A stretch of DNA of 64,000 nucleotides from Candidatus Lernaella stagnicola (GCA_030765525.1 JAVCCK010000034.1:86126-150125), one strand, 5' to 3'. Shown: positions 24,795 to 58,120, numbered from the stretch's first letter. Made by a program: numbers and translations. The notes: a model not told the origin generated them from the letters alone.

Positions 24795-24890
24795 GGCGGA
24801 GTCAATTCTTTCCGTGCAACAGAACGTTTGGGCCTGAGGTCTAAACTTATCGCTACGGGTGCTCCGGGCGATATCCGACAGGAGGAAATC

Positions 24891-25694
24891 ATGTGGGAAC
24901 GATTCAAACGCTGGGTGCGTAGTGTATTCGGCGGCGCCATTGATTCGATGGAAGATCCGGAAAAGATCCTTAGACAAAATATCCGGGATATGACCGATCA
25001 GATCCCCCGCATGAACGAGTCGCTGGCCATGCTCCGGGCAAACGTGACGCTCTTGGCCAACCGCGCGAAGAAACGACAGACGCTTCTGGACGGGCTCAAG
25101 GCCAAAATCAAGGCCGCGCTCCAAGCCGGTCGACGGGACATCGCCTTGACCTATGCCACCCAAATGGAACAACTCCAGCGCGAAATCGGCGGCGATCAGG
25201 AGCAGCTTCGTATCAGCGAGGAAGGATACGAAAAAGCCGTCAAGGTTAAAGAAGCCTTTCTAGCCGAGAAAAGACGCAAAATCGAAGAAGCGCAGCAGGC
25301 GATCGCCAAGCACAAACAGTCCGAATGGCAGAAGAAGGTCGCCGACGCGATGGAATCCTTCGAAGTGGCCGGTGTCGACCAAACTCACGATGAAATGATT
25401 GACCGCATCGAGCAGGAATCGGCGCTCAACCAAGCCCGCTTGGAAATGGCGCTCGACAATATCGACGTTCATTCCATGGAAATCGAACGTGAGGCCCAGG
25501 AAATCCAAGCCAATGAAATCCTAAAGCAATTCGAGATGGAGCTGGGCCTTACCGATGGCGAAGCGGCCGAAAAGACGCTCGGTCCGGGGGAGGCGGTGCT
25601 CGCCAACGTGGAAGCCGAAACCCAAGCGGAGGAAGTTGCCGTGGCGGAACCGGAGGTCGTCAAGACCGTCGGGCCGAAAAAACCGGGTGAATAG
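24891..25694 (+). CDS. pspA: PspA/IM30 family protein (phage shock protein A-like)
   Basis: MWERFKRWVRSVFGGAIDSMEDPEKILRQNIRDMTDQIPRMNESLAML... followed by a long coiled coil, typical of PspA/Vipp1. GGAGGA RBS 4 nt upstream. Confidence 0.8.
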   Translation: MWERFKRWVRSVFGGAIDSMEDPEKILRQNIRDMTDQIPRMNESLAMLRANVTLLANRAKKRQTLLDGLKAKIKAALQAGRRDIALTYATQMEQLQREIGGDQEQLRISEEGYEKAVKVKEAFLAEKRRKIEEAQQAIAKHKQSEWQKKVADAMESFEVAGVDQTHDEMIDRIEQESALNQARLEMALDNIDVHSMEIEREAQEIQANEILKQFEMELGLTDGEAAEKTLGPGEAVLANVEAETQAEEVAVAEPEVVKTVGPKKPGE

Positions 25695-25828: not shown

Positions 25829-26836
25829 GTGCTTGAATTGGATTGGATTATGAATGCGGCTGAATTTTATAGGGGTTTCCTGCTAAACAACGGACGTCTG
25901 GTCGTGCTGGCAATGGATCCTAATCTCCAAATTGTCGAAGCCGGCCAGGGTTGCGTTCAGGCGCTAGGTTATCCCACTGAAGAACTCGTCGGCAGAAACT
26001 TGTATGAGTTTCTCGTCGCCGAGTCTCGTGATGCCACTTACCAACTCACCGATGTGGATCATTTCGCCAACGAAACCATCACCCTGCGCACGGCTGACGG
26101 CCGCAAAACGCCACTTTTAGCCTCCTTTTTCCGTGATGATAAAGGCGTGGTGCTGGTCGGCGAGGTTCTCGACCTCGATGTGAAAAATCGCGACGCCCTT
26201 CTGGAAATGCACAAGAAATCCTTCAGCCTTGCCAAGGAAATCGAAGAGTTGCGGCAACGCAACGAGAACCTGGATATGGTCAACCATTGGCTGCGCGAAA
26301 AAGCGGTGACCGATCCCCATACCGGGCTGTACAAACGCAACCACCTTGACCGACTGCTCAAAGCCGAATGGGAACGCGCCAAGCGTTACATGGCCGATCT
26401 GAGCTTCATGCTCACGGGAATCGACGGCCTGCGCGCGTTTCGCGAAGTGCAGGGAGATGACGCCGCCACCCGCGTGATGCGGGGCGTTTCGCGCGTGCTG
26501 GACGGCCGCAAGCGTCTGTTTGACATCCTGGGGCACTTCGATAACGAGACCTTCTTCCTGATTCTGCCGCACACCAATGCCAAGGGCGCGCGGGAGTTCG
26601 GCGAACGCCTCCTGCAAATGCTGCATAACCGGGAAATTCGAGCCGGCGGATACCCCTTCCACATCTTCTTGTCGATCGGGACCGCGAGCTACCACAACCG
26701 CAACTTACCGCTCAAGAGCCATGAAGAGTTGATCCATGCGTCGGTCGACTTCCTCGGCCAAGCCCAGTTGGCCGGCGGCAACCAGGTGTTCAGCCGGCAG
26801 TCGCCGCCGACGAAGTTGCGCGTCGCCAACCCCTGA
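25829..26836 (+). CDS. PAS domain protein with degenerate GGDEF (diguanylate cyclase-like) domain
   Basis: The N-terminal PAS region is VVLAMDPNLQIVEAGQGCVQALGYPTEELVGRNLYEF. The coiled linker leads into a GGDEF-fold segment (DPHTGLYKRNHLD...FMLTGIDGLRAFREVQGDDAATRVMRGVS...) where the GG(D/E)EF signature is replaced by GHFDNETF. Start is GTG 25829 or ATG 25850. Confidence 0.7.
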   Translation: MLELDWIMNAAEFYRGFLLNNGRLVVLAMDPNLQIVEAGQGCVQALGYPTEELVGRNLYEFLVAESRDATYQLTDVDHFANETITLRTADGRKTPLLASFFRDDKGVVLVGEVLDLDVKNRDALLEMHKKSFSLAKEIEELRQRNENLDMVNHWLREKAVTDPHTGLYKRNHLDRLLKAEWERAKRYMADLSFMLTGIDGLRAFREVQGDDAATRVMRGVSRVLDGRKRLFDILGHFDNETFFLILPHTNAKGAREFGERLLQMLHNREIRAGGYPFHIFLSIGTASYHNRNLPLKSHEELIHASVDFLGQAQLAGGNQVFSRQSPPTKLRVANP

Positions 26837-26995
26837 TCGGAACCCCAACGCGAAAACCATGTCGCCTAGCCGGGCGTATCTTCCAAAAGTTCACGCTGTT
26901 TCACCACGTTGCGGGCGCCGTGCGCACGTTGACATCCAGGGGACCAAAGGATACTTTCGCGGTCTGGAAAGCAGCCGGAAAGGGCGGGATAAAAT

Positions 26996-27454
26996 ATGTT
27001 CGGCATGAGTTTTGGCGAGATCGTGGTCGTACTGGTGCTCGCCCTGGTTGTCGTCGGACCGAAGAACCTGCCCAAGGTCGCTCGTTCCATGGGCCGGGCC
27101 TATGCCTGGGTCCGCCACCACCTCGCTGTCATGCAACGCGAAATCAACATGGAAATGCGACGCATCGACATGGAGGTCCGGGAGAGCGCGACGGAACCCA
27201 ATGTCGCCGGGAAGCAGGAGGCGACGCCCGATCCGGGACCCGCCTACGACGACTCGGAGTCACCACAGCCGCCCGAGCACGACGCGAGCATATTGGAAGG
27301 CGGCGAACCGGATGATAAGCCGCCGGTGGAAATCAGCACCACCGGCAATCCACGCATTCCGCCCAGCGATCCGGACGCAGACGAAGACAAGCCCGGCCGC
27401 GCGTCCGTCGAAGATAGCGTCGCCTTCTCCGCCGGGGAGGATAGCGATCAGTGA
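26996..27454 (+). CDS. tatB: Sec-independent protein translocase TatA/TatB family (TatB-like, 152 aa)
   Basis: The N-terminus is MFGMSFGEIVVVLVLALVVVGPKNLPKVARSMGRAYAWVRHHL (TM helix plus amphipathic helix). The C-terminus is an acidic, Pro-rich tail. The stop overlaps the tatC start. Confidence 0.75.
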   Translation: MFGMSFGEIVVVLVLALVVVGPKNLPKVARSMGRAYAWVRHHLAVMQREINMEMRRIDMEVRESATEPNVAGKQEATPDPGPAYDDSESPQPPEHDASILEGGEPDDKPPVEISTTGNPRIPPSDPDADEDKPGRASVEDSVAFSAGEDSDQ

Positions 27455-28281
27455 CCGACATCGGCAGCCCGCCACCGCCTCCTACAACGCCGCTCGACAT
27501 GTCGCGCGACGGTACGATGGGCATTCTCGACCATTTGCGGGAATTGCGTAACGCGATTGCTTTCGCGCTGCTTTCGATTGCCGTGGCGAGCATACTCGGC
27601 ATCGTTTTCGCGCACGATATCTTCCGCGTGCTGACCCTGCCGCTTATGGAGATTTACAACCGGATCGGCCACGAGCAGAAACTGATTTTCACATCGCCGC
27701 CCGAAGGATTCATCACGTATTTGAAGGTCGGTGTTTTTGCCGGTCTTCTGGCCGCGACGCCGCTCTGGATGTTTTTTATGGGACGTTTCGTGTGGGTAGG
27801 GTTGTACCCGCTGGAACGGCGATTCCTGATGGTTTTCGTCGCCGTGGGATCGTTCCTGTTTGTCATTGGCGGGGCGTTCGGCTATTTCCGGATTTTTCCA
27901 TTGGGATTGAGTTTCCTGATTGAGAACTACCGCAGCGAAAGCCTGGAAGCGTTGATCAGCGCGCGGGAATATTTTTCGTTTGCGGTTCGACTTATTCTCG
28001 CTTTTGGGTTAGCTTTCCAATTGCCGCTTGTGCTCTTCCTTCTGGGTCGGCTGGGAGTTGTGACGGCGCGGGGGCTGCTGCGAGGCATTAGGTGGGCGAT
28101 ATTGATCATCTTTATCGCCGCCGCGGTTTTGACGCCGCCGGACGTGGTGACGCAGATCGGCCTAGGTTTACCGTTGATTTTCTTGTACCTGGCCGGCGTA
28201 TTGGCAGTAGCCCTATTCGGGAAGCGTAAGAAACCGGATGAAGTGAGTGACGACGCAGCCGACGCCGAAAAAACCGCGTGA
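27451..28281 (+). CDS. tatC: twin-arginine translocase subunit TatC
   Basis: LDHLRELRNAIAFALLSIAVASILGIVFAHDIF..., with six hydrophobic helices and the FGxAFQLPLVLFLL motif, matches TatC. Confidence 0.85.
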   Translation: MTDIGSPPPPPTTPLDMSRDGTMGILDHLRELRNAIAFALLSIAVASILGIVFAHDIFRVLTLPLMEIYNRIGHEQKLIFTSPPEGFITYLKVGVFAGLLAATPLWMFFMGRFVWVGLYPLERRFLMVFVAVGSFLFVIGGAFGYFRIFPLGLSFLIENYRSESLEALISAREYFSFAVRLILAFGLAFQLPLVLFLLGRLGVVTARGLLRGIRWAILIIFIAAAVLTPPDVVTQIGLGLPLIFLYLAGVLAVALFGKRKKPDEVSDDAADAEKTA

Positions 28282-28380
28282 TGTCAAAGGGTACGGTGTC
28301 TCGACTGACGTCGGGACGGTTTTGCATATTCGTCAAAAGCAGGTAGCATAAGCGCGAAAACAGGTGCAGACGGAGACGAC

Positions 28381-29415
28381 TTGAAGCGACGCATTCGGCC
28401 GATCTTGGTGATAGCAGCAATCGTTTTGGCGCTCGTTTCGTGCCAAACGGCGCAAAAGAAAAACGAGTTAGTACAAACCGAACTCGCGTGGTGGGAAAAT
28501 GCGCAGGCTCCCGAAGACGAGCAGGCGATCCGCGAGCGCGCCAAGGATATGCTCGACACCATCCGCAAGCGCCGCCCGGTGTACCGCATCGGCCCGGAAG
28601 ATATGTTGCGAGTCGCCATTTGGAACCGCCCGGACCTGAGCAAAGAGGGCCGGGTGCGCAACGACGGTATCTTCTTCCTACCCCTGATCGGCAACATCAA
28701 GGCCGACGGCTTGTCGGTCGCAGAGCTTCAAACCGTGCTCCGCGAAAAATTCGGCCGCCTACTTCGCGATCCGCAGGTTGACGTCGAGATCATCGAATAC
28801 GGCAGCAAGGTCTATTACGTATTCGGGCAGGTCTACAAACCGGGCGTGTATCCCGTCAAAGCCACCAGCTCCGTGCTCGAGGGTGTGGCCGGGGCCGGCG
28901 GCACGACCGAAAAGGCGAACCTCGGCGCAGCCTATCTCATCCGTGCCGGCACGGTTGTGCCGATCGATTTCTACCGCCTGTTCGAACGCGGCGACATCGG
29001 CCAAAACCTATTGCTGGCCGACGGCGACATCATCTACGTGCCCGACATTGCCGACTCCAAGGTGTACGTGCTGGGCGAAGTAAACGCCGCGACCGCAGTA
29101 CCGATGCGCGGCACTCGCATGCGGCTTTCCGAAGCGGTCGCGATGGCCGGGGGCTTCAACGAGATCACCGCCTTCAAGCGCGGCATCAAAATCATTCGCG
29201 GCGGTTTAGGCAATCCCCGCGTGTACACGGTCAATTACGAAGACATTCGCCGCGGCAAGGTGCCGGATATCGCCTTTTTACAGAACGGCGACATCGTGTA
29301 CGTGCCCGCCGGCGGGCTAACGAAATGGGACCGCGTAATGGGTCAATTGTTACCCAACTTGAGCCGCATCATCGTCGATGCGGCGGCGATCGACTCGCTG
29401 ACGGGAAACCGCTAA
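28381..29415 (+). CDS. Wza-like polysaccharide export lipoprotein (polysaccharide biosynthesis/export domain + SLBB)
   Basis: TTG start with lipoprotein signal MKRRIRPILVIAAIVLALVSC. The Poly_export motif is YRIGPEDMLRVAIWNRPDLSKEGRVRNDGIFFLPLIGNIKADGLSVAELQ, followed by SLBB-like repeats. Confidence 0.8.
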   Translation: MKRRIRPILVIAAIVLALVSCQTAQKKNELVQTELAWWENAQAPEDEQAIRERAKDMLDTIRKRRPVYRIGPEDMLRVAIWNRPDLSKEGRVRNDGIFFLPLIGNIKADGLSVAELQTVLREKFGRLLRDPQVDVEIIEYGSKVYYVFGQVYKPGVYPVKATSSVLEGVAGAGGTTEKANLGAAYLIRAGTVVPIDFYRLFERGDIGQNLLLADGDIIYVPDIADSKVYVLGEVNAATAVPMRGTRMRLSEAVAMAGGFNEITAFKRGIKIIRGGLGNPRVYTVNYEDIRRGKVPDIAFLQNGDIVYVPAGGLTKWDRVMGQLLPNLSRIIVDAAAIDSLTGNR

Positions 29416-29418
29416 ACG

Positions 29419-31743
29419 ATGGAACTGAGCTACCGCACCAAAGACGTGCAGATTTCCGATTACTTCCGCGTGCTCTTTCGCCGCCGGGTCGTCGTCTTGC
29501 TCACGTTCCTGGCCGTCTTCTTGTCGGTGTTGATCCACACCTTCCTCATGACGCCCATCTTCGAAGCCTTCGCCACGGTGCAAGTTAAGGAAGAGCAAAC
29601 CCAGACGATGCTGCTGGGCGAACTGGGGCGCTTCGGGCGAGCCAACACCGTCAAGGCCGAGATGGAGATCATCAAGAGCCGCACCATCGCCGAAGCCGTC
29701 GTGCGCGAACTGCACCTCGACCTTTTGGTCGTCGACCAAAGCCGGGGCCTCCAGGTCGATCTGAAAAACGTCAACCTTCCCTTGGATCAGCGCGGGCGCA
29801 CGTTCGACGTCGAATTCCTCAATGAGCAAGGACGCTTCGAGGTGTCCTACAAAGGCGACAAGCTCGGCGAAGGATCGCTGGAAGCCGGTTGTCACGAAAA
29901 GGAATTGCACTTCGACGTGGAGGTCGCGGGCGATCCGCCGCAAGCGGGCGACGGGTTCAAATTCGTGCAGCGCCCGTTTGCCGCGGTCGTGCGCATGGTG
30001 CAAAACAGTTTGGATGTCGTCGAGGTCGGCGACCGCACCAATATCATCAAGATATCTTATCGCAGCCAATATCGCGACATGGCGCGCGACATCGTCAACA
30101 AATCGGTCGAGGTCTACCAGCAGAAGGACATTGAGTACAAGAGCAGCGAAGCGGGCAACACGGTCGGTTTCATTGAGAGCCAGATCGAAGCGATTTCCCG
30201 CAACCTGGGCGACTTCGAGCAGAGTTTGCAGGAGTACAAGAAAGACCAGGGAATTATCGAGTTGTCCGCCGAGGCCGGTACGCTGATCGACGCCATCGCC
30301 GATTTCGAAGTGCAACGCTCCCAGTTGGAGATCGAACGCTATCGCTATGCGGCGATGCTGCAATCGATCAAAAAGTACGGTGTCGAAACCGCCTCGTTGC
30401 CCAGCCTGTCATCCGCCCAAGACACTGTTTTGACCGGACTCGGCCAGATATTGGCCGAACTCAAAAGCAAGAAGAGTTCCTTGTTGATCGAACTGAAACC
30501 CGAACACCCCCAGGTTAAAGCGGTCACGCAGGAAATCCAGGCCATTGGTTCGCAGATCGCCGCGATTCTCGCGCAAACCACCAAGACCCTGGATTCGCGG
30601 TTGACCAAATTGGGGCAGGTCATCGACAAGTACAACCAGAAAATCAGCGTTCTGCCCGCGACAGAGCGCAAGCTGGCGGAACTGAAACGCTCGACTGAAG
30701 TCACGAGTCAGATATACACCTTTTTACTGGAAAAGCAGCAGGAAGCCCGCATCGCGCAGGCGTCCGAGATCAGCAACATCCGCGTGATCGATTTGGCGGT
30801 GACGCCCAGCACGCAGATCAAGCCGAATATCCGACTCAATCTACTCCTCGGAATTGTCGCCGGGTTGTTGCTGGCCATCGGTGTCGCGTTCTTCTTGGAA
30901 TTCATCGACGACTCCCTCAAGTCGATCGAGGAAGTCGAGCGCTTCGTGCGCCGGCCGGTCTACGGCATCATTCCGCGCATTCCGGATTACCGTAAGGACG
31001 AAGAAGGCGGTCGCACCGTCGCGTCGGCGCTGGTAACGCACTACAGCCCGAAGAGCCCCATTTCGGAAGCTTTTCGCACGCTGCGTACGAATATCCATTT
31101 CGCCGATCCCGACCAAAAACTGCACACGTTGCTGATCACCAGCGCCGGGCCGAGCGAGGGAAAGTCGACGATCGTTTCCAACCTCGCGCTGACCTTCGCC
31201 AACACCGGCCGCAAAACCCTGCTGATCGACTGCGACCTGCGCAAACCGAATATGCAAAACATTTTTGAGATTGAACGGGATCCCGGCCTGACCACCGCAC
31301 TGCTCGGCGAAAAGCCCTGGCAGGAAGTCGTCGTAAAAACGAAGGTCGACAACCTGTTCATCATGCCCTCCGGGCCGATTCCGCCCAATCCCACGGAACT
31401 ACTGGGCAGCCAGCAAATGAAAGACGTGATCGCTTTGCTGAGAAGTGAGTTCGACCTCATCTTGTTTGACAGCCCGCCGGTCATCGCCGTGACCGACGCG
31501 GCGATTCTTTCCTCGGTGGTCGACGCCACGTTCATTGTCGTCGAACTCGGCCGCAGCCGGGGCACGGCGGTCAATCGCGCGATCGGCCTGCTGGAGAAAG
31601 TCAAAGCCAACTTGCTGGGTGTCGTGACCAACAATATCTTCGCCGGCTATCGCTACGATTACGGCTATTACAGCTACTACTATTACTACGCCGACGGCGG
31701 TCAGAAAAAGAAGCGGCGGCGGCGCACGCGATACGGGTACTAG
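29419..31743 (+). CDS. polysaccharide co-polymerase / tyrosine autokinase (Wzc/GumC-type chain-length determinant)
   Basis: The N-terminal Wzz-like TM region and long coiled-coil periplasmic domain are present, with a second TM helix LLLGIVAGLLLAIGVAFFL. The C-terminal BY-kinase domain has Walker A ITSAGPSEGKSTIVSNLAL and a tyrosine cluster GYRYDYGYYSYYYYYADGG. The 3-nt gap to the Wza-like gene suggests an operon. Confidence 0.85.
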   Translation: MELSYRTKDVQISDYFRVLFRRRVVVLLTFLAVFLSVLIHTFLMTPIFEAFATVQVKEEQTQTMLLGELGRFGRANTVKAEMEIIKSRTIAEAVVRELHLDLLVVDQSRGLQVDLKNVNLPLDQRGRTFDVEFLNEQGRFEVSYKGDKLGEGSLEAGCHEKELHFDVEVAGDPPQAGDGFKFVQRPFAAVVRMVQNSLDVVEVGDRTNIIKISYRSQYRDMARDIVNKSVEVYQQKDIEYKSSEAGNTVGFIESQIEAISRNLGDFEQSLQEYKKDQGIIELSAEAGTLIDAIADFEVQRSQLEIERYRYAAMLQSIKKYGVETASLPSLSSAQDTVLTGLGQILAELKSKKSSLLIELKPEHPQVKAVTQEIQAIGSQIAAILAQTTKTLDSRLTKLGQVIDKYNQKISVLPATERKLAELKRSTEVTSQIYTFLLEKQQEARIAQASEISNIRVIDLAVTPSTQIKPNIRLNLLLGIVAGLLLAIGVAFFLEFIDDSLKSIEEVERFVRRPVYGIIPRIPDYRKDEEGGRTVASALVTHYSPKSPISEAFRTLRTNIHFADPDQKLHTLLITSAGPSEGKSTIVSNLALTFANTGRKTLLIDCDLRKPNMQNIFEIERDPGLTTALLGEKPWQEVVVKTKVDNLFIMPSGPIPPNPTELLGSQQMKDVIALLRSEFDLILFDSPPVIAVTDAAILSSVVDATFIVVELGRSRGTAVNRAIGLLEKVKANLLGVVTNNIFAGYRYDYGYYSYYYYYADGGQKKKRRRRTRYGY

Positions 31744-31745
31744 TC

Positions 31746-32966
31746 GTGAAGTTCCTGATCGTTATTCCGGCCCTCAACGAAGAGCAGGCCGTTCGCGCCA
31801 TCATCGAACGCTGCCTCGCCGCGCGCCCGGCCATCATCGCGCAAACCCCCGTCGACGAAGTAGACATCACCGTCGTCTCTGACGGCTCCAGTGACCGCAC
31901 GCCCGAAATCGCCGCCGAATACACGGACCGAATCACCCTCGTGAGCTATCGCGTCAATCGCGGCTACGGCGCGGCGATCAAGCTCGGCTGGTCTAATTCG
32001 GATGCCGAACTCGTGGGGTTCCTCGACGCCGACGGCACGTGCGATCCGCTCTTTTTCGTCGACTTGATCAACAAACTCGTCGGCGACGAACTGAATGTCG
32101 TGCTCGGTTCACGGATGGGCGAGGACAGTGAAATGCCCAAAGTGCGCCGGTTCGGCAACCGGGTGTTCGCCGCGATCATCAACCTGATCGCCCGCGCGAA
32201 AATTTCCGACTCGGCCTCCGGGATGCGCGTGGTGCGCCGCGAAAGCCTCCCGCGTCTATATCCGTTGCCCGACGGCCTGCACTTCACGCCCGCGATGAGT
32301 TGCAAGGCAGTGCTCGATCCGCAATTGAAGATCGGCGAAGTGCCGATGACCTACGCCGAACGCCTGGGCGAATCCAAACTTTCGGCCCTCAAAGACGGCG
32401 TGCGTTTTCTACGGATCATCCTCGACATCGCCATGACGTACCGGCCCTTCCGCGTGTTCGGCGTGATCGGGATAGTTTTTTTGCTCCCGGCGCTCTTTTT
32501 CGGCGCAGACCTGGTGGCCAATTACTTCGCTTCGGGCCACGTCCCCGACGGCATGATCTACCGCGTGCTTGCCGTCGTCGTGCTCGGCTTTGCCGGTTTG
32601 CTGATCATGGGCGCCGGGATGATCGCCGAGGGCGTGGTCGAATTGCGCAATCCGTGGATTCGCCCGCACGGCGCGTTCTATCGCTTAGTGCGTCGCGTGA
32701 CGCAGTCCGACGCCATGCTGACGTTGGCCGGGATCGTCCTGCTGGCGGCGCTCGTATTCGTGGCGCGACCGGCCGTTCAATACGTGCTGACCGGTCACAT
32801 TGCGGCGCACTGGTCGCAAGTGGCGCTGGCCGGCGCGATGTTTTTGCTGGCCGTGCAGTTGACCGTGCTGGCGGGGCTGCAACGCATGCTCGCCACCATG
32901 CTCGCTACCGAGACCGATGACGTCGACCCTCGCTTCGACAAGGAGCAAGTGCTTGGCAAGGACTGA
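31746..32966 (+). CDS. family 2 glycosyltransferase with C-terminal multi-TM domain (polyprenyl-phosphate sugar transferase-like)
   Basis: GTG start. The GT2 motifs are MKFLIVIPALNEE, VVSDGSSDRT and FLDADGTCDP. Four hydrophobic helices follow (FGVIGIVFLLPALFF...). Confidence 0.75.
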   Translation: MKFLIVIPALNEEQAVRAIIERCLAARPAIIAQTPVDEVDITVVSDGSSDRTPEIAAEYTDRITLVSYRVNRGYGAAIKLGWSNSDAELVGFLDADGTCDPLFFVDLINKLVGDELNVVLGSRMGEDSEMPKVRRFGNRVFAAIINLIARAKISDSASGMRVVRRESLPRLYPLPDGLHFTPAMSCKAVLDPQLKIGEVPMTYAERLGESKLSALKDGVRFLRIILDIAMTYRPFRVFGVIGIVFLLPALFFGADLVANYFASGHVPDGMIYRVLAVVVLGFAGLLIMGAGMIAEGVVELRNPWIRPHGAFYRLVRRVTQSDAMLTLAGIVLLAALVFVARPAVQYVLTGHIAAHWSQVALAGAMFLLAVQLTVLAGLQRMLATMLATETDDVDPRFDKEQVLGKD

Positions 32967-34419
32967 CCGCGGGCGCGTCGCCCTTGTCAATGCGCCGTTT
33001 CTGCCGCGCTTTTCCCGCTCCCAACGAAGCCCGGGCGTCATCAAAAGCAACGTGCTCTACTACCCCTATTGGCTGGCCCACGCCGCCGCCTTGCTGCAGC
33101 GCGAAGGCTTCGTCGTCGATCTGCTTGACGCCCCCGCGCTAGGCCTCGATTCGACGCCCGCCGTCGATCACGTCGTGAGCTTTCAACCCGACCTCGTATT
33201 GGTCGAAACCAGCACGCCGTCCATCGCCGCCGATCGCGCCTACGCCGTCGAAGTCAAAAACAAGATGCCGGAAGCCGCCGTGTTCCTGGTCGGTACGCAC
33301 GTCACCGCGCAGCCCATACAAACCCTGGGCGACTCGCCGCTCGACGGCGCCCTGCTCGGCGAGTACGACTTCACAGCCCTCGAACTTGCGCGCGTCGTCG
33401 TCGCCGGCGGCAACCGCGCCGACGTGCCGGGTGTGGCGGTTTGCGGCGCGAGCGGCGGCGAAATTGGCGCAACACGCGCTCTGATCGAAAACCTGGACGA
33501 ACTGCCGTGGATCGCCCCGATCTACAAGCAGTTTCTGCCGATCGAGGCATACAACTTCAGTCTCGCCCATCACCCGATGGTGATGCTGATCAGCGGCCGC
33601 GGCTGCCCCAACAATTGCTTCTTCTGCCTGTATCCACAGGTGATGCACGGCCGGCGCTTTCGTGCCCGCAGCCCTGAGCACGTCGTCGGCGAACTGGAGT
33701 ATGTCGCCACGCAGATGCCCGGCGTGCGGGAAATCGTATTCGAAGACGACACCTTCACCGCCGACGAAACCCGCGCCATACAAATCGCCGAACTGAAAAT
33801 GCAGCGCGGCGTCAAGCTGCCGTTTTTCGCCAACCTGCGCGTCAATACCGAACCGGAGACCGTGCGCGCCCTGGTGCGGGCCGGGCTGCGCAGTTGCGCC
33901 GTGGGCTTTGAATCCGCCGGCGAAAAGGCGCTGGAGCGCATGAAAAAAGGCATATCGCTCGAGCGCGCCAAACGCTTCATGCAGATCGCCCGCGCCGAGG
34001 GGTTACTGGTACACGGCTGCTTCATGGTGGGGTTTCCGGGAGAGACGCGCGAGACCATGGCGCACACGCTACGTTACGCCATCGAACTCGAGCCTGATTC
34101 CGCGCAGTTTTATCCGGTGTTTCCGTACCCGGGAACCGAGGCGTACGAGTGGGCCGAACGAAACGGGTATCTCAGTACGCACGACTTTCGCAAATGGCTG
34201 ACGCCCGCCGGCCATCACGCGGCGGTGATTGATCTGCCCGGCCTGTCGCATCAGGAGCAATGGGCGTTTTGTGAAAAGGCGTACCGGCGATTCCATTTTC
34301 GCCCGCGCTACCTGGTACGCAAACTCGTCCAGGCGATTCGGCGGCCCGCGGAAGGATGGCGAAGTCTGCGCGGATTGTTCGCGTACCTGCGTTATCTCGT
34401 TGGGCGGAGAGCGTCATGA
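32917..34419 (+). CDS. B12-binding domain radical SAM protein (class B rSAM)
   Basis: The B12-binding fold is RVALVNAPFLPRF...VVDLLDAP...PDLVLVETST...VFLVGTHVTAQP. The rSAM core is MLISGRGCPNNCFFCLYPQV. The most probable start is TTG ~32953 (AAGGAG 7 nt upstream) rather than the ORF-track ATG 32917. Embedded between two GT2 genes. Confidence 0.8.
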   Translation: MTSTLASTRSKCLARTDRGRVALVNAPFLPRFSRSQRSPGVIKSNVLYYPYWLAHAAALLQREGFVVDLLDAPALGLDSTPAVDHVVSFQPDLVLVETSTPSIAADRAYAVEVKNKMPEAAVFLVGTHVTAQPIQTLGDSPLDGALLGEYDFTALELARVVVAGGNRADVPGVAVCGASGGEIGATRALIENLDELPWIAPIYKQFLPIEAYNFSLAHHPMVMLISGRGCPNNCFFCLYPQVMHGRRFRARSPEHVVGELEYVATQMPGVREIVFEDDTFTADETRAIQIAELKMQRGVKLPFFANLRVNTEPETVRALVRAGLRSCAVGFESAGEKALERMKKGISLERAKRFMQIARAEGLLVHGCFMVGFPGETRETMAHTLRYAIELEPDSAQFYPVFPYPGTEAYEWAERNGYLSTHDFRKWLTPAGHHAAVIDLPGLSHQEQWAFCEKAYRRFHFRPRYLVRKLVQAIRRPAEGWRSLRGLFAYLRYLVGRRAS

Positions 34420-35435
34420 AACGGGTGACGGTTGCCGTACTCGCTTACAACGAAGAGGCCAATTTGCCGGACCTGCTCGGCAGCTTGGCGGCGCAAACCT
34501 TACCGCAAGACCAATTCGATATTCTTATCGTCGATAACGGCAGTTCCGACCGCACGCGCGAGATCGCCGAACAGTGGCAAAGCCCCTTGAACAACCTGCG
34601 CGTGGTCGTTCAACCCGTACCGGGCATCGCCGTTTCCCGCAATTGCGCGCTGGCGGAAGCGACCACGGCGTTGATTGCGTTCACCGACGCCGATGTCATT
34701 TGTCCGCCCGGTTGGCTGCAAACGCTGGTCGAGGGTTTCGATCGGCACCACGCACGCGACGAGCATGTTGTGGCCGTGGGTGGCGGCAACACGCCCGTGT
34801 CGGGGCAGGGCGCTTTTCTCACGGCGATCGGCATCACGCTAAATAGTTTCTGGGGCAGTCACGGCAGCGTGCAGGGCATGATCTACACCGACGATCGGGA
34901 CGTGGAGCACATTCCGACGCTCAATATTTGCTACGACCGGGAGCGGGTGCGCGCCGCGGGCGGGTTTGACGAAGATTTCCGCATGGTCAGCGAAGATCCG
35001 GAACTCAATCACCGGCTGACGCGCCGCCACGGGTACAAAATCGTTTTTCTCGCCGGGGCCGAGGTGGAGCACAAAATGCGGCCGGACCTGAAAAGTTGGT
35101 GGCGCAACGTGTACATGTACGGTCGCGGGCGCACGCAGATCATCAAGAAGCACCCCGATCATCTCCAGTGGAAGTACATGGTGCCGCCGGTATTGCTGGC
35201 GGTCTTGGCGTTGATCCCACTGGGATTGGTGCATCCGCTATTTTGGCTGCCGGCCGTGTATTGGATTGCGCCGCTGCCCATCGCCGCGTACTTGTGCCTG
35301 CGCGCCGGGAAACCCACGTTGACGCCGCTGGCCTACCTCATTTTGGTCGGCAATCCCGTTTTCTACGGATTGGGCATGATCCACGGCCTGTGGTTTCGCT
35401 ACGAACCCGTTAGCCCGCGCTGCGTTGACCCATAA
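34416..35435 (+). CDS. family 2 glycosyltransferase
   Basis: MKRVTVAVLAYNEEANLPDLL...ILIVDNGSSDRT...AFTDADVICPPGWL (DxD-like), with two C-terminal TM helices. The ATG overlaps the TGA of the upstream rSAM gene (ATGA). Confidence 0.8.
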   Translation: MKRVTVAVLAYNEEANLPDLLGSLAAQTLPQDQFDILIVDNGSSDRTREIAEQWQSPLNNLRVVVQPVPGIAVSRNCALAEATTALIAFTDADVICPPGWLQTLVEGFDRHHARDEHVVAVGGGNTPVSGQGAFLTAIGITLNSFWGSHGSVQGMIYTDDRDVEHIPTLNICYDRERVRAAGGFDEDFRMVSEDPELNHRLTRRHGYKIVFLAGAEVEHKMRPDLKSWWRNVYMYGRGRTQIIKKHPDHLQWKYMVPPVLLAVLALIPLGLVHPLFWLPAVYWIAPLPIAAYLCLRAGKPTLTPLAYLILVGNPVFYGLGMIHGLWFRYEPVSPRCVDP

Positions 35436-35468
35436 AAAAACCCCGGAGCCGCAGCCCCGGGGTCTTCG
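35434..35468 (-). terminator. rho-independent terminator (minus strand; possibly bidirectional)
   Basis: The stem is ccccgg with loop agccgcagcc and ccgggg. On the minus strand the hairpin is followed by TTTTTTT, just downstream of the lipoprotein gene 35487..35912 and 1 nt after the GT2 stop. Confidence 0.5.
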
Positions 35469-35486
35469 ACACTTATTGTCTTAGGC

Positions 35487-35912
35487 TTAGCTGAACAGGT
35501 CGGTCAGGCACGCTTCGATGTCGACACAGTCGTCGTTTTCATCGATGCAGGCGTAGATATCACTGTCCTTGCCGTAATTCTCATCGCCGGCGGAGCAAGC
35601 GTCGATGACGGCGCCCAAGGCGATTTCGATTTCATCGGCATCGTAGAACGCCAGTCCGCATACATCGTACAGGTACGTGTAATTGGTGGCGCACTCGTCG
35701 TCGGTCGTGTCGTCGTCACCCGCCGTGTCGTTATCGTCGTTATCGTCGTTGTCATCGTCGTCGTCGCCGGCCGTGTCGTCATCGGCCGTGTCGTCGTCGG
35801 CCACGGTATCGTCGTCGTCGTCGTCATCGCCACAGGCAGCCATCGCGCCGAACGCCAGCGCCAACACCGTAATCAGCGCGAGCAGCAGGAACTTGTTATT
35901 AACCACACTCAT
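35487..35912 (-). CDS. small poly-Asp Cys-rich lipoprotein (paralog of 21708..22040)
   Basis: Signal and lipobox LALAFGAMAAC. A ~60-aa tract follows that is almost exclusively D with T/A/N (GDDDDDDDTVADDDTADDDTAGDDDDDNDDNDDND...). The C-terminal Cys-containing domain is ...ECATNYTYLYDVCGLAFYDADE...IDACSAGDENYGKDSDIYACIDENDDCVDIEACLTDLFS. Located 212 nt downstream of the giant rSAM gene on the same strand. Confidence 0.6.
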   Translation of the reverse strand: MSVVNNKFLLLALITVLALAFGAMAACGDDDDDDDTVADDDTADDDTAGDDDDDNDDNDDNDTAGDDDTTDDECATNYTYLYDVCGLAFYDADEIEIALGAVIDACSAGDENYGKDSDIYACIDENDDCVDIEACLTDLFS

Positions 35913-36124
35913 TTTCGTCTCCTTCGACTAGTTTTGGAATTATCAAGTTTTTAAGCGCACCGAAGAACCCGCGTAACACGGGCATCGGCATCTTCCTCCC
36001 ATTTCCTGCGGGGAGCAGCCATTGTAACCCCTTCAGACCCACTGTAAACAGCGAAGGTTCCCAATGAGATCATATTTCATGTACTTGATGAAAAACGGAG
36101 TTATCGGCAGGGGTGGGAAGGCTT

Positions 36125-39100
36125 CTAAACCTTTGATAATTCGCGGGATTCCTGTGATTGAAGGCGTTTACGCAATTCTTCGGTCAATCGTCCGATTCGT
36201 TCGTGGGCGCCGCGATTGTGGCCGAGATTGTCGCAGGCTTGGTAGCAGCCGATGACCGAAAAGTACGGATCCGATTTGGGTGTCGTCAGGGCTTTTCGGC
36301 GAAATTCCCGATAGGTCTCGCCGGTCCAAATCGTGCGGAAGTCGGCCTCGTGCAGGTTGCCCATGGGCAGGTCGTCGGCTTTGCAGCACGGAATGACCGA
36401 GCCGTCGGTTTTCACGCGGGCGTAGGTCCAGCCGATGGAGCAGGGGATTTTGTCCACCATTTCCGCGTCGTACCCCGAGCCTTCACCGGCCTGGATGCGT
36501 CGCAGGAACACGCCGTAACCGAGGAAGCTCAGGAATTCCACTTTGATCGCATAGCGCTCTTTGTCGATGGCGCACTGCGGATTATCGGGGCAGCGTTCGC
36601 ACTCGTGACGCGGATAGTAAAAAATGAGCGCGTTTTCCACGACGTTGTCTTCTTCGATTTCCAGCCGCCATTCCTTGCGGTGACACAAGACGTCGAATCG
36701 CGTGATGTCGTCGAGTTCGTAGCGGAAGCCGCCGGGCAGCAGGCTGCGCTTGACGAAGCGCGCGAATTCCAGCCCCTCGCCGTCGGCGTCCTGTCGCTTA
36801 GCACCGCGCGTGGGGTCGAGTTCGAGGTAGTCTTCGCGCTTGGGCAGATCGTTGAGCTGCCGCACGATTTCGGCGCGATCGGCCTCGGTCAGCGCCAGCG
36901 AATCGGTGTAGCCGGGCACGATGTCGATGGGCGTGAACTCGACGTACTCGGCCAGCGATTCAACGGCGAAGGAGACCATGTTCGCCACGTCATGGGCGTT
37001 CGTGTGACAGACGACGTGGTAGACCTTCACTTGCGGTTGGAAGCTATTGCGCTCGGCTTTGAGCCGGTGCAAGAGCTGGAGAGACTCCATGATTCGGCGC
37101 AGCGTCTTCGGCTGCTGATTCGGATGCACGGCGGCGTACACTTCGGGCGATCCCGCCCACACGCTCACCGTCAGGTGGTCGACGCCCGCCTCGACCAGGC
37201 CTTCGCAAACTTTTTCCGTCAGCAACGTGCCGTTGGTGATGACGGTGCATTCCAGGCCGCGCGCTTTGACTCGGCGGATGATCTCCATGGCATCGGTGTG
37301 GCAAAGCGGGTCGCCCGCGCCGGAAAGTTGCACGTGTTTGGCGCCCAATTCGGCCGCGTCGTCGATCAATCGCAGCACCAATTCGGTGGGTAGGTGTTGC
37401 TGTTTTTCCTCGCCGGTCATTCGCCGTTCGGCGAGCAGTGGCGAGTGGTTCCAGCAGCCGATGCAATCCAGGTTGCAGAAGTTGGTCAGGTCGATCTCGA
37501 AAATTTCGGGCCCGGCCAAGACTTCCTCGCCGTCCAGAATGCCTGCCAGGGCGAGGTTGTCTTCCACAAACGCCTGCGCCTCTTGGGCGGTAAGCGCGGC
37601 TTCCTCGACGGGCGCTTCAATTTCCGGCGCCGCCTCATCTTTAACCGGTTCCGGCATGATATAGCTGCAGCCCAGGGGGCCGGCGCGGTCACCCGCCTCG
37701 GGAATGTCGGTCTTGAACGAACGCAGGTCGTTGATCTCGTCGATCAGGATTTTCATGCGCTCTTCCATCGACAGTTCGGGGCGAAACTTCTCGACGACAC
37801 TCGCTTGCTTGCCTTCGGTGAGATTGGTCTCCCGCACTTCGACGTCCAACTCTTCGCAAAGCCGCAGCAGGGCGCGGATGCGGGCGTTGCGCACCGCCGG
37901 CGTGTTGGCACCGTCCAGGGACTCCCACAAGTAGTGATAATCCGTCTCCGGCAGGTGGATGCCGAACCGTTCCGGGTACACGTGCAAAGCCGTGCCGGTG
38001 ATCACGTGCATCGAGTTGATGCTCTTGATCTGGCCGATCCACGCCGCATTCTCGCGGATGAAATCGAGCGTCATCTGGAAATCATCGGCGGTCTCGCCCG
38101 GGAAACCCACGATGATGAACAAGCAGGTTTTGATGCCCGCCTCATGGCAGTCGCGGATGACGCGGCGGGCTTGCTCGACTTCGAAAAAGCGCAGTTTTCC
38201 CATGCGCTTGAGCACCGTGGGCGAGCCCGATTCGACGCCCCACTGCATTTCGTAGCAGCCCGCGGCCGCCATTTTATCCAGCAACTGCCTAGTCATGCCG
38301 GGCAGGGGGATGGCTTCGCCGTTCCAGCGGAATTCCAGCCCGGCGTCGATGATCCGGTCACAGAGTTCTTCGAGAATCACCACGTCACCGTTGAGCAGGT
38401 TGTCGGCGATCGTGAAATTGCGAAAGCCGTGCGTCTCCACATGACGGCGCAGTTCGCCGAATATGTGCTTGGCGCTGCGCATGCGAAAATCGCCGCTGAT
38501 CTGTTTGCCTTTGCAGTAGGTGCAGTTGGCGATGCAGCCGCGGCTCCATTCAAGGATCAGCGAATCGCCGGGGTACTGCTCGATGTCGAACTCGTCGTAA
38601 GTGGGCGGCGCGAGCGTGTCCAGGTCCATGATGGGGGCGCGCGGTGTGAAGCGGCATTCGCCTTGTTCGTCGAGAATCATCAGGCCGGGGATGTTCCGCA
38701 AATCCTCCCCGGCGCGCGTGCGTTCGACGATCTCCAGCAGCGTATTTTCACCTTCGCCGACCACGTAGCCGTCGATCAGGTCTCCGGCGCGGTCGATGAA
38801 AATTTGCCGGTATTCGGGCGTGAAGCACGCGGGACCGCCCAGGATGATGCGCGTGTCGCGATTGTGCTCGCGGAAACGCCGAATCACTTCCAGCGTGATG
38901 CGCTCTTTCGGGTCGACGACGCTGAAGCCGAGGATCGGCGGCGACAGGTCGACTAACTCCTCCACCGCTTGGTCAATTTGTCCCCGCAGACTGTGTTTGA
39001 CAACTTCGAAGGTCGTGTCGTTCGACCAGAAGTTCTTGTTCTCCACGTGCCACAGCATGCGGTATATCTCGTGGACGCCGTTGTAGAACTCGATGTTGAA

Positions 39101-42091: not shown

Positions 42092-42396
42092 CCCACCAGG
42101 ATACTTATGGCCCAACGTGCTCACAAGCGCTTTTACGGTTACAATGTGAATCGATTGTTGAGAAGATCGATCGAGGGAACCGTGGCGGAGAGTTCGCGGT
42201 CGAAATGAATGAAACGAAGTTCGAAGGGATACGTGTCGCCGAATGCCCGCGCAGCCTGCGGGCGCGGCAGCGTTGTTGGAAACCTCCAGGCCGGTGGCAC
42301 GGACGGGCGGATCGGCCGGTGGAGGGCAACAATTTATCCCTGTTTGATAGTGACGAATTGCCGGGACGGGGCTGCCGTTAAGAGAGCGTAATGCTC

Positions 42397-42424
42397 TGGA
42401 CAAGGGCGCAATCGTAAGTATAAT
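42397..42424 (+). promoter_or_regulatory. sigma70-type promoter for tRNA-Thr
   Basis: TGGACA, then a 16-nt spacer, then TATAAT, ending ~10 nt before the mature tRNA 5' end. Confidence 0.45.
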
Positions 42425-42434
42425 CATCCACCGC

Positions 42435-42507
42435 GCCACCGTAGCTCAGTTGGTAGAGCACGCGATTCGTAATCGTGAGGTCAGGAGTTCGAATCTCCTC
42501 GGTGGCT
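42435..42507 (+). tRNA. tRNA-Thr (anticodon CGU)
   Basis: GCCACCGTAGCTCAGTTGGTAGAGCACGCGATTCGTAATCGTGAGGTCAGGAGTTCGAATCTCCTCGGTGGCT. Folding gives a 7-bp acceptor stem, D-arm GCTC/GAGC, anticodon stem CGCGA/TCGTG with loop TTCGTAA (anticodon CGT), and T-arm AGGAG-TTCGAAT-CTCCT. No CCA is encoded. Confidence 0.85.
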
Positions 42508-54417: not shown

Positions 54418-54527
54418 ATTCGTTGGTCTCCGAAACACGCGGCCACACGTTACGGAAAAAACGACAGGGGTGCAAACCGGGCAAGATTCTACTATTAAGT
54501 AATTAACCATTCTTGCAGGAGGCCGGC

Positions 54528-57246: not shown

Positions 57247-57356
57247 GGGCCCCTGCTTAGCGCGTTTGCCGCCAAAAGAAAAGACGAGCCGCAAAAACTT
57301 GCGCTATCGCGGGGGCTTGCGGTAGGATGACGGCAACTATCCGCGGGGGAGGTCGT

Positions 57357-58046: not shown

Positions 58047-58120
58047 GGCTCCGGCTTGTCCGCCGCGCGGCGGGTCGTTACCGTAGCAACCTCATCGTAT
58101 CTATACCGGAGGAAAGCCAC

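Follow-up and report, generated by a model that had tools for sequence, protein, structure and literature searches.

A glycosyltransferase-radical SAM-glycosyltransferase trio adjoining polysaccharide export genes in Candidatus Lernaella stagnicola and its possible role in remodelling a lipid-linked sugar

Organization of the five-gene locus

The window analyzed here is a stretch of 64,000 nucleotides from Candidatus Lernaella stagnicola (GCA_030765525.1, JAVCCK010000034.1:86126-150125). Positions 28381-35435 contain five ORFs, densely packed and in the same orientation on the + strand, at the coordinates given by the initial annotation: a Wza-like gene, a Wzc-like gene, a first GT2 gene (GT2a), a radical SAM gene and a second GT2 gene (GT2b). 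Searches with Pfam and NCBIfam profiles recovered the domains that had been claimed for this polysaccharide export, GT2 and radical SAM unit (Table 1).

Table 1. Features of the five-gene locus and its flanks (positions in the window).
Feature	Coordinates	Strand	Length	Characteristics
Terminator-like hairpin	28297..28318	+		3' of tatC; 9-bp stem, 5 G-C pairs, then GTTTTG; candidate upstream boundary
Wza-like OPX lipoprotein	28381..29415	+	344 aa	Poly_export 3.8e-22; SLBB_2 1.1e-30
Wzc-like PCP-2a co-polymerase / BY tyrosine autokinase	29419..31743	+	774 aa	Wzz, GNVR, AAA_31
GT2a, polyprenyl-phosphate-type GT2	31746..32966	+	406 aa	PF00535 3.5e-25; four C-terminal TM helices
HpnJ-like B12-domain radical SAM enzyme	32953..34419	+	488 aa	B12-binding PF02310 1.4e-10; Radical_SAM PF04055 5.9e-23
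GT2b, membrane-anchored GT2	34416..35435 (ORF from 34356 possible)	+	339 aa	PF00535 1.4e-27; Glyco_tranf_2_3; Glyco_trans_2_3
G+C-rich hairpin	35440..35463	.		CCCCGGAGCCGCAGCCCCGGGG; -18 kcal/mol, z = -2.9; stable; downstream boundary

The head-to-tail packing described for the locus was confirmed, the junctions being gaps of 2-3 nt or overlaps: the wza stop codon and the wzc ATG are separated by 3 nt, and the wzc stop codon and the GTG of GT2a by 2 nt; the end of GT2a and the start of the radical SAM gene overlap by 14 nt, and the radical SAM stop codon and the GT2b start overlap in an ATGA at 34416. This spacing suggests that the five genes are co-transcribed, the trio of GT2a, radical SAM gene and GT2b being included in one transcript with wza-wzc. 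The most likely start of the radical SAM gene is the TTG at 32953, which has AAGGAG 7 nt ahead and agrees with the 488-aa model of NCBI protein P0001 (Ca. Lernaella stagnicola), to which the protein is 100% identical; an alternative ATG at 32917 would give a product of 500 aa.

Hairpins flank the unit at both ends. The downstream one is located between GT2b and a convergent gene of 141 aa, and its A7 run on the + strand side corresponds to a U7 tail for this - strand gene. The stem of the upstream hairpin was retained in the centroid fold; the terminator consensus scan as a whole did not find more sites than in shuffled sequences, so that this hairpin is weak evidence for a boundary. A conserved PAS-GGDEF gene is found 1.5 kb upstream. 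Elsewhere in the window, 20 kb away, the protein encoded at positions 55705-57294 lacks annotation and is predicted to have 8 transmembrane helices.

The Wza-like gene has a TTG start with GGAGA 5 nt ahead, and its product combines the Poly_export and SLBB domains with a lipoprotein signal peptide (lipobox LVSC). As judged from these features it is a member of the Wza/OPX proteins at the family level only, its PRK15078 score (170 bits) being below the cut-off of 333 bits. The Wzc-like protein scored 199 bits against TIGR01007, above the cut-off of 108 bits; the Wzz/GNVR periplasmic domain lies between two transmembrane helices and is accompanied by a P-loop kinase domain (Walker A GPSEGKST) and a C-terminal tyrosine cluster, YRYDYGYYSYYYYY. 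Both proteins thus resemble their counterparts in Wza/Wzc group 1 capsule and Wzx/Wzy-dependent EPS systems, the OPX lipoprotein in its Poly_export and SLBB domains and the PCP-2a protein in its Wzz/GNVR domain, Walker A motif and tyrosine-rich tail. In contrast to those systems, operon and window contain no Wzx, Wzy, initiating transferase or Wzb phosphatase: among the ORFs of at least 150 aa in the 64-kb window there was no initiating phosphoglycosyltransferase, Wzx or Wzy family (Bac_transf, Glycos_transf_4, Polysacc_synt and Wzy-type families). The locus is therefore composed of export genes and the trio only, and is not a complete Wzx/Wzy-dependent EPS locus.

Family relationships of the radical SAM enzyme and the two glycosyltransferases

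The radical SAM protein has the class B architecture, an N-terminal Rossmann-like B12-binding domain and a radical SAM core with a CxxxCxxC motif, the cysteines of which (C218, C222, C225) are invariant. The HpnJ lead of the initial annotation was borne out, no other family being nearly as close: the protein matched TIGR03471 (HpnJ) over its full length with 354.3 bits, compared with 119 bits for the next family, BchE, and about 109 bits for the third-best NCBIfam family, the "lipid biosynthesis B12-binding/radical SAM protein". The HpnJ score is nevertheless below the equivalog cut-off (577.6 bits), and identity to annotated HpnJ is 36%. Nine diverse relatives scored 372-446 bits on TIGR03471 and up to 211 bits on BchE; a true HpnJ scored 843 bits on TIGR03471. 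In a neighbor-joining tree the family and HpnJ were grouped with 99% bootstrap support (79% for the family alone, 100% for HpnJ alone), which places the family as the sister clade of true HpnJ and not inside the HpnJ clade. At 28 positions the family has an invariant residue that none of the three HpnJ sequences shares, as in HGCFMVG versus HGTFILG, and the chemistry or the substrate may therefore differ from those of HpnJ. No biochemical or genetic study of any member of the family was found in the literature.

The AF2 model of the enzyme (pLDDT 83) aligned with AprD4, TsrM, OxsB and TokK. AprD4 was the best solved fold (TM 0.76), followed by the methylases TsrM, MgmA, CysS and TokK, and was also the best PDB sequence match (6FD2, 9.5e-22). 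This enzyme of apramycin C3' deoxygenation is also Rossmann-like in its N-terminal domain and is active on a sugar, but identity is 22%, its substrate is a soluble aminoglycoside, and it needs the reductase AprD3, a partner that has no counterpart here. AprD4 has the B12-binding domain but functions without cobalamin; by analogy, the Pfam domain should not be taken as proof of cobalamin use.

The proposed polyprenyl-phosphate-type membrane tail of GT2a was supported by four predicted transmembrane helices (residues 240-377) and by PDB matches to ArnC (1.7e-12), GtrB sll0501 and DPMS over residues 2-303, the membrane part included. GT2a has the traits of the GtrB/ArnC/DPMS type, namely a GT-A domain with a DxD motif (DAD, residues 94-96), C-terminal helices and full-length similarity. 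Its top NCBIfam matches were AglJ, Dol-P hexose transferase, ArnC and PpgS, each under its cut-off (AglJ, the best, 104 bits versus 325). Similarity to HpnI by BLASTP was negligible (E values of 0.57 and 0.12 for the two GT2s), and neither is HpnI-like; between HpnI and the GtrB/DPM1-like enzymes, the first GT2 belongs with the latter.

The GT-A domain and C-terminal membrane helices of GT2a recall the polyprenyl-phosphate sugar pathways GtrB/GtrA/GtrC, ArnC/ArnEF/ArnT, PpgS/Rv3632 and haloarchaeal AglJ/AglG, and members of the GT2a family elsewhere adjoin methyltransferase genes and, as in these pathways, a GT-C gene (GT87, locus L095). GT2a differs in having four C-terminal helices, not two, and in matching these families below their cut-offs. 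We know of no radical SAM step in any of these pathways.

GT2b did not reach any NCBIfam equivalog cut-off. Its distant relatives are named ExoA (about 29% identity), and it weakly matches AglG and ExoA, enzymes that elongate lipid-linked sugars. The AF2 model (pLDDT 95) consists of a GT-A domain and C-terminal helices, with PcManGT, hyaluronan synthase and BcsA as best folds. GT2b is the commonest neighbor of the radical SAM family, and the closest homologues of the two proteins share contigs.

Distribution and gene neighborhoods of the radical SAM family

The neighborhood survey covered 86 loci that carry a member of the radical SAM family and represent about 20 taxonomic groups, with cultured Ruegeria, Roseovarius and Halanaerobacter among them (named carriers: Ruegeria arenilitoris, Roseovarius aestuarii and Halanaerobacter jeridensis). 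In 45 of the 86 loci the immediate neighbor on the same strand was a GT2 gene, and 53 had one within 3.5 kb; these loci were spread over deep branches of the family tree. The pairing of GT2 and radical SAM genes is thus conserved far outside this genome, and the GT2a-radical SAM-GT2b trio is an uncharacterized module in many bacterial phyla.

Other lineages add further partners: a pyruvyltransferase, which often forms a fusion with GT2b; an LPG_synthase_TM protein resembling HpnL; methyltransferases of class I; and a membrane protein that has no annotation and for which 9-10 helices are predicted. The order GT2a-LPG_synthase_TM-GT2b::pyruvyltransferase-rSAM occurs in loci L001, L005, L012, L017, L020, L025 and L045. 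The locus in the window has no flippase-like, pyruvyltransferase or large membrane partner of this kind. In a large clade of MAGs labeled KSB1 or "Cytophagia" no GT2 lies within 10 kb, and the partner is a radical SAM/SPASM protein instead. The Lawsonia plasmid homologue (40% identity) is found among GT2 and DUF2304 genes, heptose-type sugar-nucleotide genes and methyltransferases, and more distant homologues in Eleftheria and Solidesulfovibrio are also located inside glycan clusters. The module is present in Patescibacteria, Lawsonia, Gastranaerophilales and Halanaerobacter, which to our knowledge are not hopanoid producers.

Wza/Wzc genes adjoined the radical SAM gene in only four of the 86 loci, all from close Lernaella relatives (L003, L008, L009, L022), with the same five-gene order, tight spacing and Wza proteins 63-75% identical. 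These loci share synteny over a long range, from PspA to a giant radical SAM gene, so that conservation of Wza/Wzc may be due to simple ancestry. Alcyoniella (L004), the other genus of this phylum, has the radical SAM gene with no adjacent Wza/Wzc, as do about 80 other loci; weak Wza-like genes were found within 10 kb in three more (L070, L072, L082). Any link between the trio and an exported polysaccharide would be specific to the Lernaella lineage.

Possible function of the module

The resemblance to hpnI-hpnJ noted in the initial annotation holds in part. The module shares with the HpnI-HpnJ(-HpnK-HpnL) pathway of bacteriohopanetetrol cyclitol ether (Burkholderia, Methylobacterium) a membrane GT2 beside a B12-domain radical SAM enzyme of a sister family (full-length HMM match, about 36% identity) and, in other lineages, the LPG_synthase_TM partner, the order in true hpn loci being hpnI(GT2)-hpnJ-hpnK-LPG_synthase. 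It departs from that pathway in that its GT2s are ArnC/GtrB-like and ExoA-like rather than GT21-type HpnI, its radical SAM enzyme is below the HpnJ cut-off and outside the clade, it has no HpnK deacetylase, it occurs in lineages without known hopanoids and, here, it is joined to a wza-wzc operon.

The evidence as a whole tips the balance slightly towards the trio being an autonomous, hopanoid-independent analogue of HpnI/HpnJ(/HpnL) that remodels a lipid-linked sugar. From the gene content, spacing, family relations and conserved neighborhoods observed, we infer its substrate, chemistry and destination as follows. GT2a, as an ArnC/GtrB/DPMS-type enzyme, would work on the cytoplasmic side of the inner membrane, where it would transfer a sugar from a nucleotide sugar to polyprenyl phosphate. 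The HpnJ-like radical SAM enzyme, a soluble protein, would abstract a hydrogen atom from the lipid-anchored sugar and remodel its carbon skeleton. GT2b, a minimal membrane GT2 of the cellulose-synthase fold, would extend the product or transfer onto a lipid-linked acceptor.

The ring contraction of a lipid-linked glucosamine that is attributed to HpnJ itself is supported by genetics only. Published reviews propose that HpnJ and the calditol synthase Cds of Sulfolobus acidocaldarius contract a lipid-linked hexose ring, in the case of Cds a head group that becomes a cyclopentyl polyol; Cds differs in being archaeal and acting on GDGT lipids, and is likened here by its proposed reaction. The chemistry we tentatively prefer is a rearrangement of the ring as proposed for HpnJ and Cds, which would yield a carbocyclic sugar or one rearranged in some other way. 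C-methylation would come second, with less to recommend it, and AprD4-type dehydration seems improbable.

C-methylation would make the enzyme a cobalamin-dependent methyltransferase that acts on an unactivated carbon of the lipid-linked sugar with no ring rearrangement, like MoeK5 of moenomycin or GenK of gentamicin biosynthesis. Such a role is possible but rather doubtful. Most characterized class B radical SAM enzymes methylate, PhpK, HpnR and RiPP C-methyltransferase models were secondary matches, and the folds ranked after AprD4 are methylases. A homologue from Streptomyces clavuligerus (31% identity) follows two Asn-synthase-like genes, a position that we take to be similar to that of moeK5 in the moe cluster. 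MoeK5 and GenK are also class B enzymes acting on sugars, and the sugar of MoeK5 is lipid-linked. In the network of a review, MoeK5 and Fom3 stay with HpnJ when the threshold is stringent, and the Lernaella MAG has been reported to encode cobalamin transport. However, the nearest families by score (HpnJ, BchE and then the ladderane-associated family) are non-methylases, as is AprD4, the best structural match; MoeK5 and GenK are more distant, belong to natural-product biosynthesis, and the S. clavuligerus sequence, which is probably MoeK5-like, falls outside the clade of the family and HpnJ.

The radical-mediated modification had been placed in EPS repeat-unit assembly. Its lipid-linked sugar part is a reasonable proposal in view of the sister relationship to HpnJ and the types of GT2; its EPS part is weak. 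According to that reading the five genes form a dedicated EPS operon, in which the radical SAM enzyme modifies a lipid-carried repeat-unit sugar and Wza/Wzc export the polymer. The tight junctions from wzc through the trio, the recurrence of the five-gene order in the four Lernaella-type loci, the conserved PAS-GGDEF gene and the weak Wza-like genes near three other loci argue for it. We nonetheless consider it unlikely: Wza/Wzc are limited to four close relatives and may be there by ancestry, they are not adjacent in Alcyoniella or the other loci, and no repeat-unit assembly genes were found among the ORFs of 150 aa or more in the 64 kb. In addition, GT2a is expected to form a monophosphate-linked sugar, and in the GtrB and ArnC systems such a sugar is normally a side-branch donor, not a repeat-unit primer.

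Modification of the lipid carrier (the polyprenyl chain or another membrane lipid) in place of the sugar is very unlikely: many recently described radical SAM enzymes act on lipid chains and the third NCBIfam match is a lipid biosynthesis family, but that match is far below HpnJ in score, and the neighbors of the gene encode glycosyltransferases, pyruvyltransferase and sugar-nucleotide enzymes, with no lipid synthesis genes. Weaker still is the view of a divergent true hopanoid side-chain enzyme, with the trio decorating bacteriohopanepolyols in Lernaella: HpnJ is the nearest family and the GT2, radical SAM and LPG_synthase_TM architecture is shared with hpn loci, but score and tree position speak against it, none of hpnI-type GT21, hpnK, shc and hpnH was found in the 64-kb window, the family is found in lineages not known for hopanoids, and a preprint reports TIGRFAM HpnJ matches only in genomes with SHC and HpnH.

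For the hopanoid-independent remodelling of a lipid-linked sugar, the partner set of other lineages suggests that a flippase step follows and that the product ends up in a glycoconjugate of the envelope. LPG_synthase_TM is the family of HpnL and of the flippase domain of MprF. In Lernaella and its close relatives, where the trio is joined with wza-wzc, the product is probably made alongside an exported polysaccharide. The findings might even reflect a widespread undescribed pathway: a hexose bound to polyprenyl phosphate would be contracted or rearranged by an HpnJ-type radical SAM enzyme, and the product would enter surface glycans or glycolipids and, in Lernaellota, feed a Wza/Wzc-exported polymer; this extended proposal is speculative and unlikely to hold in full. 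If true, it would mean that carbocyclic (cyclitol, carba-sugar) or otherwise rearranged units occur in bacterial surface glycans or glycolipids, made by a pathway that about 20 taxonomic groups share, with Patescibacteria, roseobacters, cable bacteria and the pathogen Lawsonia among them.

Organization of the five-gene unit

Five ORFs on the forward strand, coding for Wza-like and Wzc-like proteins, a glycosyltransferase (GT2a), a radical SAM enzyme with a B12-binding domain (rSAM) and a second glycosyltransferase (GT2b), were all found at the locus, confirming the five-gene unit described in the initial annotation. The rSAM protein is 100% identical to the NCBI protein of the MAG Candidatus Lernaella stagnicola, a member of phylum Ca. 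Lernaellota from Ace Lake, Antarctica. The Wzc-like protein carries a Walker A motif and the tail sequence YRYDYGYYSYYYYY.

The tight packing of the genes was also verified: the first two gaps measure 3 and 2 nt, and at the next two junctions the genes overlap, by 14 nt and through an ATGA. The 14-nt overlap presumes that rSAM starts at TTG 32953, which lies 7 nt downstream of AAGGAG and agrees with the 488-aa NCBI model. Co-transcription of the five genes is a reasonable inference. A riboswitch and RNA family scan of positions 26500-36500 gave nothing except a chance miRNA match, and the 5' leader of the unit folded no better than shuffled sequences. The sigma-70 scan, which is uninformative for the Lernaellota phylum, found no promoter upstream of wza.

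Genes for PspA/IM30 and a PAS-GGDEF diguanylate cyclase precede tatA-tatC-wza, an order retained in the Lernaella-like relatives L003 and L008; this might point to regulation of the export operon by c-di-GMP. Downstream, a convergent gene for a predicted lipoprotein terminates at the hairpin that it has in common with GT2b. Beyond it lies a giant radical SAM ORF, which reads as three class-B-like modules plus one MoaA/SPASM-like module; no known family spans the entire protein. Versions of 1972-1988 aa, likewise convergent to GT2b, occur in the relatives L003, L008 and L022. A separate minus-strand cluster at 52571-58040 may represent another envelope glycan locus.

Features of the window and of loci from other genomes; positions are those of the window unless a locus is named
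Feature	Position	Strand	Remarks
Truncated B12-rSAM-like ORF	1-987	-	window edge; 82 bits to rSAM query
TPR protein	5540-13561	+	2673 aa, almost wholly TPR repeats; followed by AAA_22 ATPase
MiaB-like methylthiotransferase	20358-21719	+	
PspA/IM30	24828-25694	+	
PAS-GGDEF diguanylate cyclase	25829-26836	+	
Terminator-like hairpin	28297-28318		3' of tatC
Wza-like	28381-29415	+	Poly_export + SLBB (Pfam/NCBIfam); lipobox
Wzc-like	29419-31743	+	Wzz + GNVR + P-loop; TIGR01007 199 bits vs cut-off 108
GT2a	31746-32966	+	GT2 (Pfam/NCBIfam)
rSAM	32917/32953-34419	+	B12-binding + Radical_SAM (Pfam/NCBIfam)
GT2b	34356/34416-35435	+	GT2 (Pfam/NCBIfam)
Stable hairpin	35440-35463		between GT2b and convergent gene
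Predicted lipoprotein	35487-35912	-	141 aa; signal ends ...AMAAC; long poly-Asp acidic tract; no Pfam match
Giant radical SAM ORF	36125-42439	-	single ORF, 2104 aa; four Radical_SAM stretches, two B12-binding domains, C-terminal SPASM
Putative glycan cluster	52571-58040	-	NAD-dependent epimerase, xylose-isomerase-like TIM barrel, 391-aa unknown protein, 529-aa unannotated protein with 8 predicted transmembrane helices, 265-aa membrane protein
653-aa protein	57917-59878	+	weak B12-binding match
Radical SAM/SPASM partner	L019, 8799-9998		equivalents in L002, L013, L014, L018, L023, L026, L029, L039
Tandem B12-radical-SAM-like ORFs	L038, 11248-21418		seven ORFs, 22-30% identity to query
Distant radical SAM homologue and neighbours	L090, 3492-11168		30% identity

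Family placement of the radical SAM enzyme and its glycosyltransferases

Searched against NCBIfam, rSAM gave a full-length match of 354 bits to TIGR03471, the model of the hopanoid enzyme HpnJ, with BchE as runner-up (119 bits). The TIGR03471 cut-off is 577.6; nine diverse relatives of rSAM scored 372-446 bits and an annotated HpnJ 843. Annotated hpnJ genes on plasmids were approximately 36% identical to rSAM (tblastn).

In a neighbour-joining tree of 93 sequences (100 bootstraps; the calditol synthase Cds is absent from it), the rSAM family was monophyletic at 79% and HpnJ at 100%, and the two were sisters at 99%, leaving outside the homologues from Eleftheria, Streptomyces clavuligerus and Solidesulfovibrio as well as BchE. 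Comparison by HMM and phylogeny, as suggested in the initial annotation, thus found HpnJ to be the nearest family. The alignment contained 18 positions exclusive to the rSAM family and HpnJ, and 28 positions that are invariant within the rSAM family and differ from all three HpnJ sequences. By these criteria, rSAM is not itself an HpnJ; it belongs to a family, as yet without a name, that is sister to HpnJ. Database matches to this family number more than 1,800, in about 20 taxonomic groups.

AprD4, which dehydrates a sugar 1,2-diol, gave the best superposition with the AF2 model of rSAM (pLDDT 83; TM 0.76), ahead of TsrM, MgmA, CysS, OxsB and TokK. The predicted fold is that of a class B radical SAM enzyme, from which neither chemistry nor cobalamin use follows. 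Choosing the chemistry by fold was abandoned, since methylases and non-methylases were matched alike.

GT2a combines a GT-A domain with four C-terminal transmembrane helices, and its residues 2-303 match three polyprenyl-phosphate transferases of solved structure (ArnC, GtrB and DPMS), in keeping with the membrane tail of this type noted initially; the match fits a polyprenyl-phosphate sugar synthase. Its family is large (more than 5,000 matches), and members elsewhere adjoin methyltransferases or, in locus L095, a GT87 (GT-C) gene. GT2b has few close relatives, located on the same contigs as the nearest relatives of rSAM; distant ones (about 29% identity) carry the ExoA label. Its AF2 model (pLDDT 95) shows a minimal cellulose-synthase-like membrane GT2 fold, as in PcManGT, hyaluronan synthase and BcsA.

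Neither glycosyltransferase can be regarded as an HpnI orthologue, since BLASTP of GT2a and GT2b against HpnI gave no significant similarity. The proposed likeness to hpnI-hpnJ therefore holds for rSAM, as sister of HpnJ, and for its pairing with GT2 genes, but not for the GT2 proteins themselves.

Distribution of the module

Eighty-six loci carrying the rSAM family were gathered, from about 20 taxonomic groups as counted from record labels. Carriers include the cultured Roseovarius aestuarii, Ruegeria arenilitoris and Halanaerobacter jeridensis, and a Lawsonia intracellularis plasmid. Greedy selection of non-overlapping ORFs mis-called genes in high-GC loci; a query-based table and a phmmer-based count were used instead. 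By the latter, a same-strand GT2 gene was directly adjacent in 45 of the 86 loci and within 3.5 kb in 53.

The association with export genes on which the initial annotation built its EPS proposal is real in the Lernaella lineage, in which the module is joined to wza-wzc, but among the 86 loci Wza/Wzc flank the rSAM gene only in four, all from close relatives (L003, L008, L009 and L022). In these, rSAM is 70-75% identical to that of the window, and long-range synteny extends from PspA, GGDEF and Tat through the giant radical SAM gene. In the other named genus of the phylum, Alcyoniella, the order is pyruvyltransferase-GT2a-rSAM-GT2b, without export genes. What is conserved is the GT2-rSAM-GT2 trio and not the export operon.

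Alphaproteobacteria and one Bacillota MAG carry GT2a-LPG_synthase_TM-GT2b::pyruvyltransferase-rSAM, with or without a methyltransferase, flanked by unannotated membrane proteins of 9-10 predicted helices; subgroups of Nitrospirota and Fibrobacterota have an additional GT9 gene. True hpn loci are ordered hpnI-hpnJ-hpnK-LPG_synthase, so that a membrane GT2, a radical SAM enzyme and LPG_synthase_TM form an architecture common to both sister systems. In the window, tblastn with the LPG_synthase_TM, pyruvyltransferase and Methyltransf_23 partners, and with the 9-10-helix membrane proteins, gave no match at E < 1e-3; the putative glycan cluster of the window was not homologous to the accessory membrane proteins of the module (tblastn).

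Several loci differed in content. In a clade labelled KSB1 or 'Cytophagia', a radical SAM/SPASM gene of approximately 399 aa precedes the HpnJ-like gene in place of GT2; the substrate may differ in this clade, or the pathway may be split. In an Omnitrophota MAG (L038), seven more B12-radical-SAM-like ORFs lie directly downstream of the HpnJ-like gene and after GT2b-like and GT2a-like genes. Plasmid 1 of Lawsonia intracellularis (L006, NC_008012.1) carries a 40%-identical rSAM homologue in a glycan cluster with GT2 and DUF2304 genes, GalE, a SIS domain protein, HAD-IIIA, a GHMP kinase, a second radical SAM gene and five class I methyltransferases. Lawsonia, a pathogen, might therefore be used as a model organism for studying the family. 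On an Eleftheria terrae plasmid (L090), the distant homologue is accompanied by a 'cobalamin-dependent protein', a PIG-L deacetylase, a WecB/TagA glycosyltransferase, epimerases and GT4 genes, and is another radical SAM step inside a glycan cluster.

Proposed function and significance

We infer the substrate, chemistry and product of the module from sequence comparison. By analogy with HpnI/HpnJ and, according to reviews, with Cds, rSAM would remodel a sugar bound to a membrane lipid. The likeness of GT2a to ArnC/GtrB supports this, as do the neighbourhoods, which are consistently glycan-related even for distant homologues. GT2a would load polyprenyl phosphate, the most likely lipid carrier; rSAM would remodel the bound sugar, and GT2b would elongate the glycan or carry out a transfer to a lipid-linked acceptor.

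An HpnJ-type rearrangement is tentatively favoured as the reaction, since none of the best-scoring families (HpnJ, BchE, the ladderane-associated radical SAM family and AprD4) is a methylase. The same observation speaks against C-methylation, which we consider somewhat less likely; dehydration, as catalysed by AprD4, is less likely still. A dedicated function of the unit in making an exported polysaccharide is doubtful, because what argues for it is tight gene spacing within one lineage; assembly of EPS repeat units, as originally proposed, was not borne out, ORFs of at least 150 aa across the 64-kb window having given no match to initiating phosphoglycosyltransferase, Wzx or Wzy families. A hopanoid role for the trio is unlikely, since rSAM scores below the HpnJ cut-off, lies outside the HpnJ clade and has no HpnI-type GT2, and since its family is present in groups, among them Patescibacteria and Lawsonia, for which hopanoid production is not known. 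HpnJ TIGRFAM matches are confined to genomes positive for squalene-hopene cyclase, according to a preprint. For annotation, 'HpnJ-like' matches below cut-off should not be taken as evidence for hopanoid capacity.

Our literature search found no publication describing the rSAM family or the module, and nothing relevant on HpnJ-like homologues or on radical SAM enzymes together with polyprenyl phosphate or EPS. To our knowledge, only two radical SAM enzymes, HpnJ and Cds, have so far been linked to the remodelling of sugar head groups on lipids, and in vitro reconstitution has been achieved for neither. By analogy, the module appears to be a widely distributed system of HpnI/HpnJ-like remodelling of lipid-linked sugars on a different carrier. 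Comparative genomics gives this lead good support, and the cultured carriers Ruegeria, Roseovarius and Halanaerobacter offer tractable hosts for working out the rSAM reaction. Rearranged or C-methylated sugars, if indeed produced, would withstand glycosidases and acid and could be biomarkers or antigens. The size and spread of the family, together with its coupling to polyprenyl-phosphate-type glycosyltransferases and not to hopanoid genes, imply that, in bacterial envelope biogenesis, sugars on lipid carriers undergo radical chemistry far more commonly than has been recognised.
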